Shown: positions 3,581 through 48,464, counted from the stretch's first letter. The stretch is DNA of 51,984 bases from an uncultured Candidatus Saccharibacteria bacterium (GCA_964366725.1 CAYIUL010000001.1:1-51984), one strand, 5' to 3'. Notes: a model not told the origin generated them from the sequence alone. Translations and numbers: made by a program.

Positions 3581-3633
3581 ATGTCGGCTAGAATTTATGG
3601 GACCACTTGAGATTAGTAACGCTAATTGAAGAG

Positions 3634-3660
3634 AGAAAACCGCTTAATAGCGGTTTTCTC
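3634..3660 (+). terminator. intrinsic terminator after the P-loop gene
   Basis: AGAAAACCGC-ttaata-GCGGTTTTCT: a 10-bp stem whose 3' arm runs into a U-rich tract. Confidence 0.7.
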
Positions 3661-3726
3661 GTAGGGCATAACATTCAGGGCTTTAAGGCCGTTGATTTTT
3701 AGAAACAAAAGTGAGAATATTTAAAA

Positions 3727-4236
3727 ATGGACTGGTTAAAACAAAATTGGTACCACATAACTCAACTACTACTTCTTCTTTGGCCTCCGAAAAAAGAAAA
3801 AGGGGTGACTATCGACAAGAATAGTGACGAAGTAGATTTGGACAAGATCAAGGGTACCACCAGAATACTCTTTATAGATGACGAGAAATTTAAAGTTTCT
3901 AACATACTTGCAGAACAGTATGGTTGGGTTAGAACCAAGTGGGTAAAGGACGTTATATCTCTAGACTCTCAGGATATACAAAATGCAGATATAATTTTTA
4001 TAGATATTAATCGTGTGGGTACAAAGCTCGGCTTTTTAAATGGTTTAGGGTTGGTTGAACCACTAAAAGGTAGGTACCCCAAAAAGAAGGTCGTCGTTTA
4101 CTCAGCAAATCCCTATAGAAACATGTCTAATCCAGCAATTCAACGAGCCGATGGGAGGTTAAAAAAATATTCAACCCCCTTTGAGTTTCAAGACTTAATA
4201 GAAACATTTGCTAAAGAAATATATGGGAACAAATAA
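3727..4236 (+). CDS. stand-alone receiver (CheY-like REC) domain protein
   Basis: 169 aa. REC landmarks: acidic pair ILFIDDE, phospho-acceptor-like IIFIDIN, VVVYSA (T/S position), LKKYSTPFEF (K-P position). Short hydrophobic N-terminus and no output domain. Very AT-rich. Confidence 0.65.
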   Translation: MDWLKQNWYHITQLLLLLWPPKKEKGVTIDKNSDEVDLDKIKGTTRILFIDDEKFKVSNILAEQYGWVRTKWVKDVISLDSQDIQNADIIFIDINRVGTKLGFLNGLGLVEPLKGRYPKKKVVVYSANPYRNMSNPAIQRADGRLKKYSTPFEFQDLIETFAKEIYGNK

Positions 4237-7351: not shown

Positions 7352-7421
7352 AGACATACACAATGAGAATCATTGAAGGAGCCCTGACTGACGAACAAAT
7401 TAATTTCTTAGATAACTAATT

Positions 7422-7967
7422 ATGGCGGTAAAAATTACATACTTTGTTCATGGAACAACTACAGATAACGAGAGGAATATATCCTCCGGATGGTCTGATG
7501 CGGGGTTATCAGAACCGGGCAGAAAACAATCTTTAGAGTTAAAAGAGCAAACCAAGAATAAGAGCTTTGACGTAGTATTCTGTTCCGACTTAAAAAGGGC
7601 GCTTGAATCCGCAAAACTGACTTGGGAGGGGATTGTGCCGATCATTACGGACCAAAGATTGCGCGAGTGTAATTACGGTAATTATAACGGTAAGCCGTCA
7701 TCGGTAGTTGAGCCGATGCAGGAGAATATGGTCTGGGATAAATTTCCCAACGGTGAAAGCTACGAAGATGTTAAAGCCCGAATCGCGGATTTCTTGGAAT
7801 TCCTTAAGCAAAATCATGATGGCAAATCGGTTGCTATCGTGGCCCACAAAGCTCCCCAGCTTGCGTTAGAAATTTTGTTAAAAGGGAAAACCTGGGAACA
7901 AGCGTTTGCCGAGGACTGGCGAAAAACCCACGCCTGGAAACCCGGCTGGGAGTATATATTAGAATAA
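7422..7967 (+). CDS. histidine phosphatase (phosphoglycerate-mutase-like) family protein
   Basis: 181 aa. YFVHGTTTDNE at the catalytic His position, SDLKRALESA, IVAHKAP. The usual Arg of the RHG motif is missing (VHG). Confidence 0.8.
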   Translation: MAVKITYFVHGTTTDNERNISSGWSDAGLSEPGRKQSLELKEQTKNKSFDVVFCSDLKRALESAKLTWEGIVPIITDQRLRECNYGNYNGKPSSVVEPMQENMVWDKFPNGESYEDVKARIADFLEFLKQNHDGKSVAIVAHKAPQLALEILLKGKTWEQAFAEDWRKTHAWKPGWEYILE

Positions 7968-42904: not shown

Positions 42905-43441
42905 CTATTCCGCCCGAGATCTTTTCTCCCGGCGCATCATAATGAGAATTAGGACCGGGGCTGTCAGCCAAAAAAATAATGCTCTTTGTCCGGCAAAATA
43001 CCCCAATAGATATTCCGGAAATATCGTAAGCTTGTCGATGGGAATGAAGTTAAGAATTATTGATACTAAAATACCCAGTTGGAGCAAGCTGATAAGCGAG
43101 ACCCAAAATATGGAGAATTCTTTCATCGTCAGCCGATGTTTGACCAACGATCTGTTAAGAATGGCGAAAACCGTCAAATAGAAAACAAAGAAAAGGGCTA
43201 TCCGGGTCAGATACATTTCAGGAGAAATGCGAGCCGCCTCGTGTAACTCCGAAAAATAAGGAAAAAGCGCCTGCAAAACGTAAGCGATATAGATGGACAA
43301 TAAAGATACGAGTGCCTTTGTCCTGCCCAAGCTCAAGCCGTAAAGAAGGAGAAAAATAACTATCAAAAACCCGAAAAGCGTTTCCGGCCCTAAATTCAGA
43401 GAAGAAAGTTTAGAAATATAAGAGTTAACGACTTCCACCAC
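42905..43441 (-). CDS. integral membrane protein (CvpA-like?)
   Basis: 178 aa, 4 TM helices, GTG start. Confidence 0.55.
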   Translation of the reverse strand: MVEVVNSYISKLSSLNLGPETLFGFLIVIFLLLYGLSLGRTKALVSLLSIYIAYVLQALFPYFSELHEAARISPEMYLTRIALFFVFYLTVFAILNRSLVKHRLTMKEFSIFWVSLISLLQLGILVSIILNFIPIDKLTIFPEYLLGYFAGQRALFFWLTAPVLILIMMRREKRSRAE

Positions 43442-43458
43442 TTAATTATAGCACGCCT

Positions 43459-44241
43459 TTACTTAACTTTGAGGTGTATCACCAGATTGCCCGGTTCTGC
43501 CTTATGCTTTCCGGTGTTTCCGCCGCGGGGCACGACGATGTCATAGCCCCTATCCAGTTCTTCGGGAATACGAAGTTCTATTTTCTTTTTGGTTTTTGCC
43601 CGTCCGGCGCCCCGGCAATGAGAACATTCTTTCTCGGGCATCTTTCCCTTGCCGCGACAGGTATTGCAGACGGTTATCCGGGAGAAGTATCCGAATCCGC
43701 TTCTGGTGGTTTGTCGGACTTGTCCTGTTCCTACGCAAGTTTTACAGTTCGCCATTGAGTATCCTTTAGCCACCCCTGACCCCTCGCATTCAGAACAGGA
43801 ATCGAGTATCTCGTATTCAATGACCCTTGATGTGCCCAGGTCTTTCTTGCTCACAGCGACTTCCACATACAAGTCCTCTCCTTTGGAGCGCTCCTCCTGC
43901 TGGGGAGAGCGGTATCCAAAAACATCCGAGAACATGTCGAACAGATCTTCCATTCCGCCGGCCCGGCCGCGTGAGCCGAACAAGTCGGAAAAATCAAAAC
44001 CCTGGCTGTATTGGCCGTGAAAACCGCCGTCATTATAGGCAAAACCGAAGTTGTCATAATTAGACCTCTTCTTGGGATCGGACAAGATTTGATAGGCCTC
44101 GTTTATTTCTTTAAACTTGGCCTCGTTGCCCGTTTTTTTATCGGGATGATGTTCGTGAGCCAGCTTGCGAAATGCCTTTTTTATTTCATCATCGCTCGCC
44201 GTCCTTGGTACTCCCAAAATTGTGTAGTAATCTTTATTCAT
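43459..44241 (-). CDS. dnaJ: DnaJ-type co-chaperone, short form
   Basis: 260 aa. J domain (HHPDK), G/F region and four CxxCxGxG repeats. Ends after the first C-terminal beta domain. Confidence 0.88.
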
Positions 44242-44303
44242 AAAATGACTAATTAGTAATTAGACATTAGAAATTGCTGTATTTAGGCCTTATTTTACAC
44301 CAC

Positions 44304-44333
44304 TTGACATTTCATATCAAGGTATGCTATAAT
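44304..44333 (+). promoter_or_regulatory. near-consensus sigma70 promoter (antisense to the dnaK-dnaJ operon)
   Basis: TTGACA (44304-44309), 18-nt spacer, TATAAT (44328-44333). Confidence 0.7.
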
Positions 44334-44339
44334 GGTTAT

Positions 44340-44655
44340 ATCAGAGCTTGGGAAGGGAAACTTGTTGGGGAGCCGGTTGCTGTCCCTCAACCCAGCTGTT
44401 CTGGCCGACATCGTGTCGGCTAAAATTAATAAGAATCGGCTCCACGCGTTCTTTTCAAGATTCGGGACAGATAAGCGGGCGCCGCCAGAAGGCTGCGTAT
44501 CACGTAAGCTGTCCTCCCGAAACCTGGCCAGGAAGAACATAGCGGCGACGCCTACACAGGTTCGCGGCATTTATTCCTGCAATTTAAAAAAACTGCCGGA
44601 TAGCATACCAGGGTGTGACTCCGGCACGCGTCTTCCTTCGAGAAGGCGTTTTCTT
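44340..44655 (+). ncRNA. candidate structured ncRNA of unknown class (~315 nt)
   Basis: Bounded by the promoter above and the terminator at 44627-44660. No credible ORF. Several helices seen: 44369-75/44447-53, 44404-10/44414-20, 44464-70/44509-16, 44594-600/44620-26. GC is higher than the flanks. Confidence 0.5.
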
Positions 44656-44660
44656 TTTCT
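44627..44660 (+). terminator. intrinsic terminator
   Basis: CGTCTTC-cttcga-GAAGGCG (7 bp including one G.U) followed by TTTTCTTTTTCTT. Confidence 0.7.
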
Positions 44661-44786
44661 TAAATTCAAAGGTCAGAATTCATATAATACTTTCTATATT
44701 TTCCGCTTACTTATGATATTTCATAGTATCATAAGTTAAACAACTAAAACCTCTGCTTTTACATCGCGCTCTTCCACTTCAAGCAG

Positions 44787-46634
44787 TTAGTCCTTGGGTT
44801 CTTCTTTGGGTTCTTCCTGCGGAGGCGGTGTCTGTTGTTTGTATAATTCTCCGCCGACTCTTTGCGCAACTTTGGACAGTTCTTCGGTAGCTTTTTTTAT
44901 TTCCTCAACACTCTCCGATTTCAAGTTTGTTTTAACCGCTTCGGCTTTCTCGTTTAATTCTTTTTGGTCCTCTTCTTTTATTTTAGCATCGTTTTCCTTA
45001 ACCATCTTCTCCGAAGTGTAGACGAGTGTTTCGCCAAGATTCCTGGTTTCGGCCAGTTCCTTTCTTTTTGCGTCCTCGGCGGCGTGTTTTTCCGCATCAG
45101 CGGTCATCCTCTTTTTTTCGTCCTCCGAAAGGCCGGATGAACCCTCTATTTTTATGGACTGCTCTTTTCCGGTGGCCTTGTCTTTGGCTTTTACGTGTAA
45201 GATGCCGTTGGCGTCTATGTCAAAGCTCACTTCAACTTGAGGAACGCCTCGCGGAGCCGGAGGAATGCCATCAAGAATGAATCTCCCCAGTGTTTTATTG
45301 TCATGAGCCATCGCCCTCTCTCCCTGAAGAACGTGTATCTCAACCGAGGGCTGATTGTCTGCCGCCGTTGAGAATATCTGCGTTTTAGAAACCGGCACGG
45401 TGGTGTTCTTCTCTATCATCTTTGTGGATACCTGGCCAAGCGTCTCGATACCGAGAGACAAGGGCGTGACATCCAAAAGCAGAACATCTCTTATCTCGCC
45501 CTGCATAATTCCCCCCTGGACAGCCGCTCCCAAAGCAACGACTTCGTCGGGGTTGATATCCTTGTGCGGGTCTTTGCCGAAAAGTTTCTTAACTTCTTCT
45601 ACGATAAGCGGCATTCTGGTCTGTCCGCCAACCAGTATCACCTCGTTAATATCGCCGGTTTTGAATCCGGATTCGTTCAAGGTCTTTTTGGTAAGTTCTA
45701 TGGAGTGCGTGACGAGGTCTCCTACCAATTCTTCGAGTTTTGCCCGAGTAAAGGCCATGCTGAAATGCTTCGGCCCGGAAGCGTCCGCGGTCAGGAATGG
45801 GATGTTTACTTCGGTCTGAAGAGTACTTGAAAGCTCATGCTTGGCTTTTTCCGCGGCGTCTTTAAGCCGCTGGACGGCCAGCTGGTCTTTGGACACGTCA
45901 ACCCCCTGGTCTTTTTTAAACTCGCCTATCAAATAATTGATTACCCTTTGATCCAGATCGTCTCCCCCGAGATGCGTGTCGCCGCCGGTTGATTTGACCT
46001 CGATTGTGTCGTCGCCTATCTCGAGCACAGAAATGTCGAATGTGCCTCCGCCAAAGTCATAGACCACTACTTTTTCATCTTTTTTCTTATTTAATCCGTA
46101 AGCCAAAGCCGCGGCAGTCGGCTCGTTTATAACGCGCTTAACGGTCAGTCCCGCTATCTCTCCGGCGTCTTTGGTCGCTTTTCTTTGAGAGTCGTCAAAA
46201 TACGCCGGAACAGTGATAATGGCTTCGGTAATTTTTTCGCCCAAGCGGTCTTCGGCATCAGCCTTAAGCTTCTGCAGTATCATTGCCGATACTTCTTCGG
46301 GCTTATGCCATTTGTCGCCTATCTTTACTTCCACTCCGCCGTTGGAGGCCTCTCTTATCTCATAAGGAAGAAGCTTCTTGTCCCTTTGGACCTCTTCGTC
46401 CTTAAAACGGCGCCCGATGAGACGCTTAACGGAAAAGATGGTATTGGCCGGGTTGGTAACCGCCTGGCGCTTGGCAGTCACGCCCACATACCTTTCCCCG
46501 CTCTTGCCCATAGCGACTACCGAGGGGGTAGTCCTCATCCCCTCTTTGTTCTCTATTATCCTCGGCTGGCCAACCTCAACCACCGCCATTGCGCTGTTAG
46601 TTGTCCCTAAATCGATTCCTAATATTTTTGCCAT
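44787..46634 (-). CDS. dnaK: molecular chaperone DnaK (Hsp70)
   Basis: 615 aa. Motifs: [28 protein letters not shown]. Confidence 0.98.
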
Positions 46635-46653: not shown

Positions 46654-47145
46654 TTATTTTATTATTTTTACTCTTGCCGGACGGATAACCTTGCCGTGCA
46701 TCGTGTATCCCGCCCGTACTTCTTCTGTTTTATCACCGCTTTCTCCTTCCACCGCTTCCCCCGACGCTTCGGTCGGGGCCCCGACTTCTGACGTCGGGGA
46801 TGACTCTATTGCTTCATGAAGATTTGGGTCGAATGCGCCTTCTGTGCTTATCCTTTCGATGTTGTGTTTTTTCAAGAACTCTTCGAATTTCTTAACCACC
46901 TGGTCCAGCCCCGGATTTCCTATTTCTTTTGACGCTTTTTCCAAATCGTCCACTAATTCGATTACCTCCAGCACGACCCTCTCATTGGCGAACTTGGCGA
47001 ATTCCGACAACCTCTTCACTTCATCTTTCTTATAATTTATGAAATCAGCCCTCTCCCTCTTCCAGTTATCCAGGTATTCCTGGGCCTGGACTTTCGCTTT
47101 TTCCAATTCGGTTTCGATGTTCTTGTCTTCTTTTTGTTCGTCCAT
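46654..47145 (-). CDS. grpE: nucleotide exchange factor GrpE (with C-terminal insertion)
   Basis: 163 aa. Motifs: RERADFINYKKD, FDPNLHEAIE, GYTMHGKVIRPARVKI. Confidence 0.92.
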   Translation of the reverse strand: MDEQKEDKNIETELEKAKVQAQEYLDNWKRERADFINYKKDEVKRLSEFAKFANERVVLEVIELVDDLEKASKEIGNPGLDQVVKKFEEFLKKHNIERISTEGAFDPNLHEAIESSPTSEVGAPTEASGEAVEGESGDKTEEVRAGYTMHGKVIRPARVKIIK

Positions 47146-47146
47146 A

Positions 47147-47896
47147 TTAATAAAGTTTATTTAATTCCTCGGTTATGTATTTGATCAGGGAGATATTTTT
47201 CTCGTAATCCATTCTGGTCGGTCCCACAAGCGTCAGTGAACCGATACAATCCCCCGGAAGACCGTACTTGGCGCACATAATGGTTTCGTGTTGGATCTGC
47301 CTGAAAGGACTTTCTTTACCTATCATTATCTGAACCGGCACTCCCCGGGGCGCGCCCAGCGTGTTGAAGAATTCCCGCTCAATGAACTGGAACATTCCCT
47401 CAAACTCTTCGAAGAAACTGGCCAGTTGAAATACTTTACCGACTTCTCTGAACTCCGGATGTTCAAATAAGCCGGCCAGTCCTTTTTTAAAAAAGTCCTC
47501 ATCTGTGGAGATTCCCGTAATCACTAAATTGTCCGAAAGATCCGATAATACCCTGGCCACGATCTTATTGATTTCTCTCGGGTCTGAGGGCGTGCCATGT
47601 ATCGCCCGCTTAATTTTGTTTTTATACTCCGCTCCTAAATCTAAATTGGCCTCACGCTCCAACAGCGAATTTACAAAATATCTGTATGTTTTGTCCGTCG
47701 GCACCCTCCCGCCGGAGGTGTGGAGTTGTCTTAAATAACCGGCCTGCTCCAAATCGAACATTTCGTTCCTTATTGTGGCCGAACTTAAATGTAAATGACC
47801 CTTATCCGCTGCAAGAACCGACCCGACCGGTTTTGCGGTTCTAATATACTCTCTAACCACGAAATCAAGCAATTTTTCCTGTCTTTTGCTTATCAT
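47147..47896 (-). CDS. hrcA: heat-inducible transcription repressor HrcA (short)
   Basis: 249 aa. Winged-helix N-terminus PVGSVLAA ... SSATIRNEM ... LEQAGYL. Heads hrcA-grpE-dnaK and has a CIRCE element upstream. Confidence 0.88.
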   Translation of the reverse strand: MISKRQEKLLDFVVREYIRTAKPVGSVLAADKGHLHLSSATIRNEMFDLEQAGYLRQLHTSGGRVPTDKTYRYFVNSLLEREANLDLGAEYKNKIKRAIHGTPSDPREINKIVARVLSDLSDNLVITGISTDEDFFKKGLAGLFEHPEFREVGKVFQLASFFEEFEGMFQFIEREFFNTLGAPRGVPVQIMIGKESPFRQIQHETIMCAKYGLPGDCIGSLTLVGPTRMDYEKNISLIKYITEELNKLY

Positions 47897-47934: not shown

Positions 47935-47962
47935 AGTATATTCCCCATTAGCACTCTGTCAA
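47935..47962 (-). promoter_or_regulatory. hrcA promoter overlapped by CIRCE
   Basis: On the minus strand: TTGACA (inside the CIRCE centre), 16 nt, TATACT. Confidence 0.65.
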
Positions 47963-47980
47963 GAGAGTGCTAATGGGGAA
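47941..47980. promoter_or_regulatory. CIRCE operator (HrcA binding site)
   Basis: TTCCCCATTAGCACTCT-gtcaag-AGAGTGCTAATGGGGAA. It contains TTAGCACTC-N8-GAGTGCTAA; the consensus spacer is N9. Confidence 0.85.
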
Positions 47981-48051: not shown

Positions 48052-48079
48052 TTGACTAAATTTGTTTTGGATATAAAAT
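48052..48079 (+). promoter_or_regulatory. sigma70-like promoter for the downstream ncRNA candidate
   Basis: TTGACT (48052-48057), 16 nt, TAAAAT (48074-48079). Confidence 0.5.
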
Positions 48080-48085
48080 ATCTCT

Positions 48086-48409
48086 GTGGCTCTGATAATG
48101 GAGCCCTAAAATCTATATGTTCATTCTTATAGAAAAACTTAGGGCTCCGCTCTCTGGAGTAAGTGAGCGGTAAGAAACGTGATTACTGAAACTAAGCGTG
48201 AATTGTCGTGAATGAACCAAGACAATTAGCGGAGCCCGGCCTGCGCAAGTAGGGTCAGAGGATAGACAGTGTTGAGGGGGATGAATTAGTAACGGAGTAA
48301 TGACTCGATTACTAAAGTGTCCGGGCGTTTCAGTGCCTGGAAGAAAGTCCTCTCTGGAGTAAGTTTATCCTTGGGAAGGGACCGGATTCATTATCCGGTC
48401 TTTTCTTTT
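48086..48409 (+). ncRNA. candidate structured ncRNA or leader of unknown class (~320 nt) upstream of the RM pair
   Basis: 570-nt gene-free gap. 10-bp hairpin 48100-09/48139-48. GCAA-tetraloop hairpin 48240-53. Competing pairings among GGAGCCC, GGGCTCCGC and GCGGAGCCC. Strong terminator at the 3' end. No ORF. Confidence 0.5.
48380..48409 (+). terminator. intrinsic terminator
   Basis: GACCGGAT-tcatt-ATCCGGTC followed by TTTTCTTTT. Confidence 0.75.
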
Positions 48410-48464
48410 AAGTCCGACTGCACTTGGAATAAATATATAAAAACTATAAACTATATATGACACT

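Follow-up and report, generated by a model that had tools for sequence, protein, structure and literature searches.

A previously undescribed, stand-alone structured noncoding RNA gene very probably lies in the 545-bp dnaK-dnaJ spacer of a Patescibacteria (CPR) contig from Hainich groundwater. Its conserved core folds into three helices. The window analyzed here is the whole stretch of 51,984 nt, and coordinates are counted from its first letter. We give the account as a whole (a new noncoding RNA gene, a trans-acting role in binding a partner, and coupling to dnaJ through the promoters) a probability of about 0.55. The mechanistic part is tentative. Read from the anatomy of the gene and its transcript, the trans-acting, partner-binding mechanism and the promoter coupling together come slightly short of even odds.

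The RNA gene lies between two minus-strand chaperone genes, where the first-pass annotation of this DNA had placed it. It is flanked by dnaJ at 43459 to 44241 and by the Hsp70 gene dnaK at 44787 to 46634. Two further minus-strand genes are grpE (46654 to 47145) and hrcA (47147 to 47896). The annotation had called the RNA antisense. That description is right as to orientation, which is opposite to dnaK and dnaJ, and it can refer to orientation only, because the RNA is intergenic and overlaps neither chaperone gene. The GC enrichment that had been noted was confirmed, with a GC content of 0.50 to 0.525 within the RNA segment versus 0.36 to 0.38 in the flanking intergenic DNA. The proteins nearest to the DnaJ of the window carry the label Candidatus Yanofskybacteria or Paceibacterota. 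This clade has a short DnaJ, with 260 to 273 aa versus 353 to 377 aa in outgroup Patescibacteria. A conserved ORF of about 178 aa follows dnaJ (42905 to 43441, minus strand) and has no Pfam match. It was ruled out as a split-off DnaJ C terminus, having no similarity to it.

The RNA gene has its own transcription signals, both of which had been proposed from the sequence and both of which held up. The promoter spans 44304 to 44333 on the plus strand. It consists of a -35 box TTGACA (44304 to 44309), an 18-nt spacer, a TG extension (44325 to 44326), and a -10 box TATAAT (44328 to 44333), and it matches the sigma-70 consensus at 12 of 12 positions. The intrinsic terminator spans 44628 to 44659 on the same strand and reads GCGUCUUCC-UUCG-AGAAGGCGU, then UUUUCUUUUUC. 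Its 8-bp stem occupies 44628 to 44649 and is followed by TTTTCTTTTTC, with the T-run ending at 44659. The predicted transcript runs from 44340 to 44659 and is about 320 nt long, its start being set by the -10 box and its end by the T-run.

A second, putative promoter on the minus strand (44292 to 44320) has a -35 box TTGATA (44320 to 44315), a 17-nt spacer, and a -10 box TAAAAT (44297 to 44292). It matches the consensus at 10 of 12 positions and lies about 45 nt upstream of the dnaJ start codon, and we infer that it serves as the dnaJ promoter. The two promoters interlock, so that each -35 box sits between the -35 and -10 boxes of the other. The same geometry was found by promoter scan in the related loci L083 and L180. 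In both, the RNA promoter reads TTGACA-18-TATACT with a TG extension, and terminators are present at the 3' ends. A promoter of this type and a nearby terminator were found in all three scanned relatives (L083, L180, and L168). These signals were scanned with tools in the window and those three relatives and located by eye in the remaining members.

Relatives were sought with nhmmer and a covariance model (R1, described below) in JGI and ENA metagenome contigs and in contigs reached through closer DnaJ proteins. Nine further distinct homologues were retrieved (L082, L083, L084, L085, L167, L168, L169, L178, and L180). A candidate first seen in one sequence is now a family of ten distinct members, with a near-invariant core in 10 of 10. 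All homologues lie directly upstream of dnaJ and are transcribed divergently from it, in Yanofskybacteria-like Paceibacteria (DnaJ 64 to 85% identical). As far as sampled, the family is restricted to this lineage. Among GTDB representative genomes, the best DnaJ was 45% identical, and nhmmer found no RNA homologue. Seven related loci have no RNA at the dnaJ site. In their genomes the RNA is either dispensable or encoded elsewhere. In a rough neighbor-joining tree of DnaJ, the RNA-bearing loci fall into two sister subclades, with RNA-less loci interspersed among them and also at the base. This arrangement would fit a single gain, after which the RNA was lost or relocated several times.

Some weaker matches were rejected. 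The nhmmer and model matches in L092 and L112 are weak and lie antisense inside the dnaK coding sequence, and the weak match in L040 is missing the pseudoknot motif; all three were attributed to chance. In viral contigs, a first pattern gave 0 matches and a second gave 75, judged to be about chance level. R1 found nothing convincing among the viral-contig matches. The best of them, L210 (IMG/VR; 1 to 150 and 7400 to 7730), is an unrelated tandem repeat of about 49 nt that contains CCGAAACCTGGCCAG.

The neighbor on the other side of the RNA is not constant. Most relatives have a Pfam-less gene X there, L082 and L169 have a PemK toxin gene, and the window has dnaK. Gene X encodes 250 to 290 aa and lies between dnaK and dnaJ in relatives, often abutting or overlapping dnaJ. 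Examples are L162 (3213 to 3998), L164 (2655 to 3521), L180 (1720 to 2472), L183 (1523 to 2317), and L185 (1747 to 2499), and there are others. X and dnaJ abut in the seven RNA-less loci, and X is absent from the dnaK-dnaJ position of the window. Several loci also carry other elements around the RNA gene. Palindromic, MITE-like elements (CCCCGCCGTTGAAAAGAAA...TTTCTTTTCAACGGCGGGG and variants) occur after RNA terminators. They were located in L085 (about 2342 to 2410 and 2890 to 2960), L180 (about 2470 to 2540), L169 (about 2400 to 2450), and L167 (about 1470 to 1600), and in L085 and L167 such elements are inserted right at the promoter -35 region. An extra consensus promoter, TTGACATTAATATCATAT(T/C)TGCTATACT, lies past the RNA terminator on the minus strand of L169 (about 2250 to 2335) and L082 (about 1950 to 2030). 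Its product would be a small hairpin RNA that reaches, in antisense, the 3' end of the PemK toxin gene and may be an antitoxin-like sRNA. In L167, the RNA promoter and dnaJ are separated by an inserted gene of the 23S_rRNA_IVP family (four-helix bundle), at 1666 to 2028. About 400 nt of extra sequence is found at the same position in L082 (about 2600 to 2940) and is possibly a degenerate copy of that family.

Sequence conservation is limited to a core at 44446 to 44628 of the window, with about 116 consensus positions. Its elements follow in the order S1-H1-J12-H2-J23-H3, in which near-invariant junctions link three helices. All lie on the plus strand. S1 (44448 to 44462) is a conserved single-stranded block, GUUCUUUUCAAGAUU, with the consensus GUUCUUUCGAAAUU in alignments A4 and A5. 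H1 (44463 to 44519) has the base CGGGAC/UCCCG, in the family CGGGACGGC...GCCGUUCCG, and an apex of 28 to 110 nt across members. J12 (44520 to 44528) reads AAACCUGGC and has the family form AUACCUGGC. H2 (44529 to 44579) has the outer stem CAGGAA/UUCCUG, in the family CAGGG...CCCUG, and a variable interior. J23 (44580 to 44594) reads CAAUUUAAAAAAACU, with the consensus CGAAUAAAC in the same two alignments. H3 (44595 to 44625) reads GCCGGA-uag-CAU-[ACCAGG]-GUG-ugac-UCCGGC. It contains the outer stem GCCGGA/UCCGGC, an internal loop, the inner stem CAU/GUG, and the loop ACCAGG (44607 to 44612). Helix apices, the 5' domain, and optional 3' domains vary freely. Some members have 3' modules of 60 to 170 nt between H3 and the terminator. 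In the window and L169, the terminator directly follows H3.

The three hairpins recur in single-sequence folds of pieces of the RNA in 10 of 10 members. The plus-strand fold of the window had a z score of -2.84 against shuffled sequences, and the minus strand had -1.58. Comparative support came from three alignments. MAFFT alignments of untrimmed sequences (A1 to A3) misaligned the variable helices and were left out of the counts. Because MAFFT could not align these helices, the sequences were projected by hand onto the 116 consensus columns, with apices and bulges trimmed and N as filler (A5). In A5, 92.4% of 340 cells pair, and 12 of the 34 pairs are changed on both sides. Its covariation score was reached by 0 of 500 shuffles. 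Slid controls, in which partners were moved by 1 to 3 columns, gave 36 to 47% paired cells and 2 to 5 compensatory pairs. As A5 was fitted by hand, R1 was built from it and used by Infernal to realign the untrimmed sequences (A6). A6 gave 94.1% paired cells and 11 compensatory pairs, versus 31 to 48% and 1 to 4 pairs in its slid controls. The window matched R1 over all 116 positions with 60.7 bits (E = 1e-17), as one of the sequences from which the model was built. A5, A6, and the extended alignment A7 (see below) all lean toward structure, because A5 and A7 are hand fitted and A6 comes from a model built on A5.

Most of the covariation is in H2, where 8 of 11 pairs are compensatory. About 89 to 92% of H1 cells pair, mainly with G-U/G-C exchanges and with 1 or 2 compensatory pairs. 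The outer stem of H3 has one compensatory change, from C-G to U-A in L167, and in two members G-C replaces A-U, or the reverse, in its inner stem. The sample consists of ten distinct members of one lineage, and many compensatory cells are inherited from few events, such as two H2 sequence types. Pairing was 92.4% on the plus strand versus 87.4% on the opposite strand, with 20 G-U cells. These cells, with the orientation of promoter and terminator, identify plus as the probable RNA strand. The structured RNA that had been proposed from hand pairing of one sequence now has 92 to 94% of its helix cells paired and 11 to 12 compensatory pairs, far above shuffled and slid controls.

Two further pairings were rejected. 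A long-range helix between S1 (GUUCUUUCG) and J23 had 72.7% of cells paired and one compensatory cell, and shuffles equaled it in 159 of 500 cases. A second pairing, suggested by RNAalifold on a MAFFT alignment, would join CUGGC of J12 to GCCGG on the 5' side of H3. It has no compensatory change, fits the A-type domain (see below) poorly, and conflicts with H3, which has one compensatory change. It is possible as an alternative conformer.

The core probably also contains a pseudoknot. CCUGG in J12 (44523 to 44527) is complementary to CCAGG in the H3 loop (44608 to 44612) on the plus strand. Both strands are invariant in the ten cores, so that these cores are uninformative on their own. A paralogous domain, here called A-type, provided variation. 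L178 and L180 carry an A-type domain as the 5' part of the transcript, in tandem with the core and with the same order of elements. It consists of a helix, GAUACUUGGCC, a helix GGAAYCG...CGRUUCU, a junction, and a hairpin GCUGGA...UCCAGY whose loop contains GCCAAG. R1 recognized the L178 copy with 18 bits (E = 0.0014). In L164 an A-type domain is the whole transcript (3609 to 3780, minus strand), the site and the type of promoter being unchanged. A-type and core can therefore exist independently. The pseudoknot is CUUGG:CCAAG in the three A-type domains. When these were added by hand (A7), one pseudoknot position had C-G in the ten cores and U-A in the three added domains, and the remaining helices gained further compensatory pairs. 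The pseudoknot thus appears to covary, in one event at a single position among hand-aligned paralogues, which is supportive but not conclusive.

This modular build could suggest a ribozyme, such as a self-cleaving motif that processes a multidomain precursor into separate RNAs. The pseudoknotted fold is directly preceded by S1, which is conserved and single stranded. One transcript can string together the core, an A-type domain, and 3' modules, and A-type occurs alone in L164 and the core alone in L168. We consider a ribozyme very unlikely. The RNA has no likeness to a known self-cleaving class, no feature marks a cleavage site, and the core exceeds typical small self-cleavers in size. The sole match to a known class was to the Hairpin ribozyme, at 17 bits on the wrong strand, and it did not recur in the homologues.

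The 5' part of the transcript is species specific. The domain at 44340 to 44447 (plus strand) is drawn from a single-sequence fold only. Its hairpin is closed by GGAGCCGGUU (44369 to 44378) and AAUCGGCUCC (44434 to 44443) and contains two inner hairpins. It has no counterpart in the homologues, to whose 5' parts it is not alignable. Other members have different 5' hairpins or pseudoknot-like elements. The domain contains the 12-mer CTTGGGAAGGGA (44347 to 44358, plus strand), which had been reported to be shared with a second noncoding RNA candidate. The repeat itself is real. Exact copies are at 44347 and 48370, and the window has no others; with one mismatch allowed, there are 4 matches versus 0.37 expected. 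Exact sharing by chance between two short segments seems unlikely. The link to the second candidate is unsupported, because the 5' domain that holds the 12-mer is not conserved and R1 does not detect the second candidate. In this candidate (about 48052 to 48410, plus strand), TTGACT-16-TAAAAT resembles a promoter, and a terminal hairpin GACCGGAU...AUCCGGUC leads into a U-run. It had no Rfam match and was absent from all retrieved loci. Within it, the 15-nt sequence CTCTCTGGAGTAAGT is directly repeated without a mismatch, at 48150 and 48350.

The transcript does not appear to encode a protein. The first-pass annotation had found no credible ORF. Mechanically there are two, one of 135 aa on the plus strand (44332 to 44739) and one of 91 aa on the minus strand; neither is conserved, and neither has a Pfam match. 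The 135-aa ORF starts inside the -10 box and passes through the terminator. It is annotated as a gene in a public assembly. ENA has a 6-kb piece of the sequence of the window. The ORF frames are not kept in the nine homologues, where only patches of 10 to 20 aa match and the frames shift. A protein-coding gene was ruled out on these grounds.

The RNA did not match a described family. Rfam 15 gave 0 matches at gathering score across the whole window and only two chance-level matches at an E value of 10 or less. The ten homologous loci likewise matched no family, and at the same E value they gave only unrelated matches of 17 to 20 bits that differed between homologues. ARAGORN found 0 tRNA or tmRNA genes in the window. 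Nor did the RNA match any of the four universal RNAs whose signatures the first-pass annotation had been unable to recognize in it. 6S RNA had no model match, and the supported fold is three separate hairpins and a pseudoknot, not a rod of about 180 to 200 nt with a central bubble. Neither class A nor class B of bacterial RNase P RNA matched in the window or the ten homologous loci. A tmRNA, with its tRNA-like domain and tag frame, was rejected on the ARAGORN result. SRP RNA had no model match, and its helix-8 (domain IV) motif is absent from the conserved blocks of A4 and A5. A generic riboswitch acting as a 5' leader was rejected as well; there is no plausible plus-strand ORF past the terminator, and the next genes are convergent. 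As judged by these model comparisons, membership of a described family is excluded. Two outcomes that the first-pass annotation had named as refuting, a clear Rfam match and a lack of conservation or covariation in relatives, were thus both contradicted.

One of the universal RNAs (6S, RNase P, SRP, or tmRNA) could have diverged so far in CPR that the standard models miss it. Points in favor are the strong promoter of housekeeping type, the separate terminator, and the length of 300 to 500 nt seen here, and none of the four was detected in the 52-kb window. We find this highly implausible. Ten members gave no right-strand Rfam score, even a weak one, and ARAGORN was negative. The fold has no 6S rod, P4-type core, helix-8 motif, or tRNA-like end. 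The gene is also missing at the conserved dnaJ site in seven close relatives.

A more specific alternative is a riboswitch-like aptamer, sometimes in tandem, that controls its own terminator, with read-through antisense to the convergent gene (dnaK in the window). The core is aptamer-like in being compact and pseudoknotted, with helix tips that vary freely and about 30 nucleotides of the junctions and loops that are invariant, and L178 and L180 carry two homologous domains in tandem. The terminator immediately follows H3 in the window and L169, and the downstream gene is convergent in every case. No ORF follows on the RNA strand, however. About half of the members have 60 to 170 nt of extra structured modules between H3 and the terminator, so that an expression platform is not conserved. 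Nor is the convergent gene constant (dnaK, the Pfam-less X, or the PemK toxin gene), and the neighboring genes point to no candidate ligand. An aptamer of this kind is unlikely.

A CIRCE-like inverted repeat, TTAGCACTC-N8-GAGTGCTAA, is at 47948 to 47973, just upstream of hrcA on the hrcA promoter. It is a single copy in the window, with a spacer of 8 nt where 9 is usual, and shares sequence with TTGACA-16-TATACT, a promoter on the minus strand (47962 to 47935). A CIRCE operator was also sought beside dnaJ, and none is near it. Since the sole CIRCE-like operator is at the hrcA promoter, dnaJ would be uncoupled from the operon where the RNA gene is present.

Transcription itself could be what counts, with the strong promoter throttling or insulating dnaJ and the transcript as a by-product. 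The interlocked divergent promoters are conserved. The RNA gene stays beside dnaJ in all members and its other neighbor changes. The CIRCE-like element is solely upstream of hrcA, and insertion of the RNA gene separates dnaJ from the CIRCE-controlled hrcA-grpE-dnaK operon. A by-product, however, would not keep three helices by compensatory changes, nor near-invariant junctions where the helix tips are unalignable, and tandem duplication would be unexpected for it. We regard this explanation as quite unlikely.

Our preferred reading is a functional RNA. It would be made abundantly and act in trans as a folded molecule. The pseudoknotted core would be a binding surface for a conserved cellular partner. 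We read it in this way because the helix tips vary, the distance from H3 to the terminator varies, and no ORF follows. The partner would more probably be a protein than a small ligand. Synthesis of the RNA and transcription of dnaJ would be coupled through promoter competition. The promoters share about 30 bp, so that polymerase would not occupy both at once. A bolder form of the hypothesis is a new CPR-specific class of RNA, either a riboswitch-like sensor or an RNP subunit, with one or two cooperating pseudoknotted domains that tie dnaJ to a signal or partner. We consider this rather improbable.

Patescibacteria (CPR) make up a large share of bacterial diversity and are uncultivated. The RNA gives a concrete and testable entry point to them, with a strong promoter, a compensated fold, a core that is sometimes in tandem, and a fixed relation to a chaperone gene. 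It adds a family that is absent from Rfam, is open to synthesis and probing in vitro, and can be sought in MAGs with model R1. Binding of a ligand or protein by the core, if it occurs, would reveal a form of regulation peculiar to these reduced, episymbiotic cells. A full-text search of the literature found no paper on a dnaJ-divergent RNA or on noncoding RNAs of Patescibacteria or Parcubacteria.

Several known systems share single features with the RNA. 6S RNA is similar in that it is a stand-alone RNA with a housekeeping-type promoter; the new RNA is probably abundant as well and may bind protein. It differs from 6S RNA in having three hairpins and a pseudoknot instead of a long rod with a central bubble, and it is longer (300 to 520 nt). 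The E. coli sRNA candidate tpke11 is reportedly from the dnaK-dnaJ intergenic region, which is the position of the new RNA. The latter has no Rfam match of any strength, is much larger, is opposite to the chaperone genes, and belongs to another host phylum. The common location looks coincidental.

Tandem domains are known in glycine and some other riboswitches. Like those tandem-aptamer riboswitches, some members of the family have two compact homologous domains per transcript, with conserved junctions and free tips. Unlike them, they have no downstream ORF on the same strand, no conserved expression platform, and no match to a riboswitch model. Noncoding or antisense RNAs can also be controlled by riboswitches, as in EutX/Rli55 and AspocR. 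The new RNA resembles these in having a sensor-like structured domain, then a terminator, and a convergent gene beyond. It differs in having no known aptamer, and its terminator distance and downstream gene vary.

The closest comparison is with lineage-specific orphan noncoding RNAs found by comparative genomics, such as the raiA motif and the Chloroflexi-1 and Dictyoglomi-1 RNAs. Like these, the gene stands alone between a promoter and a terminator of its own, combines a conserved pseudoknotted core with variable peripheral stems, and has a narrow phylogenetic range. It does not match them in sequence or structure (Rfam 15). Its host phylum, Patescibacteria, also sets it apart from them, as do its tandem paralogous domains and its constant placement next to dnaJ in divergent orientation. 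An orphan, lineage-specific noncoding RNA is thus a familiar kind of gene. As far as Rfam 15 and the literature go, the family itself, the host phylum, the pairing with dnaJ, and the tandem paralogues are new.
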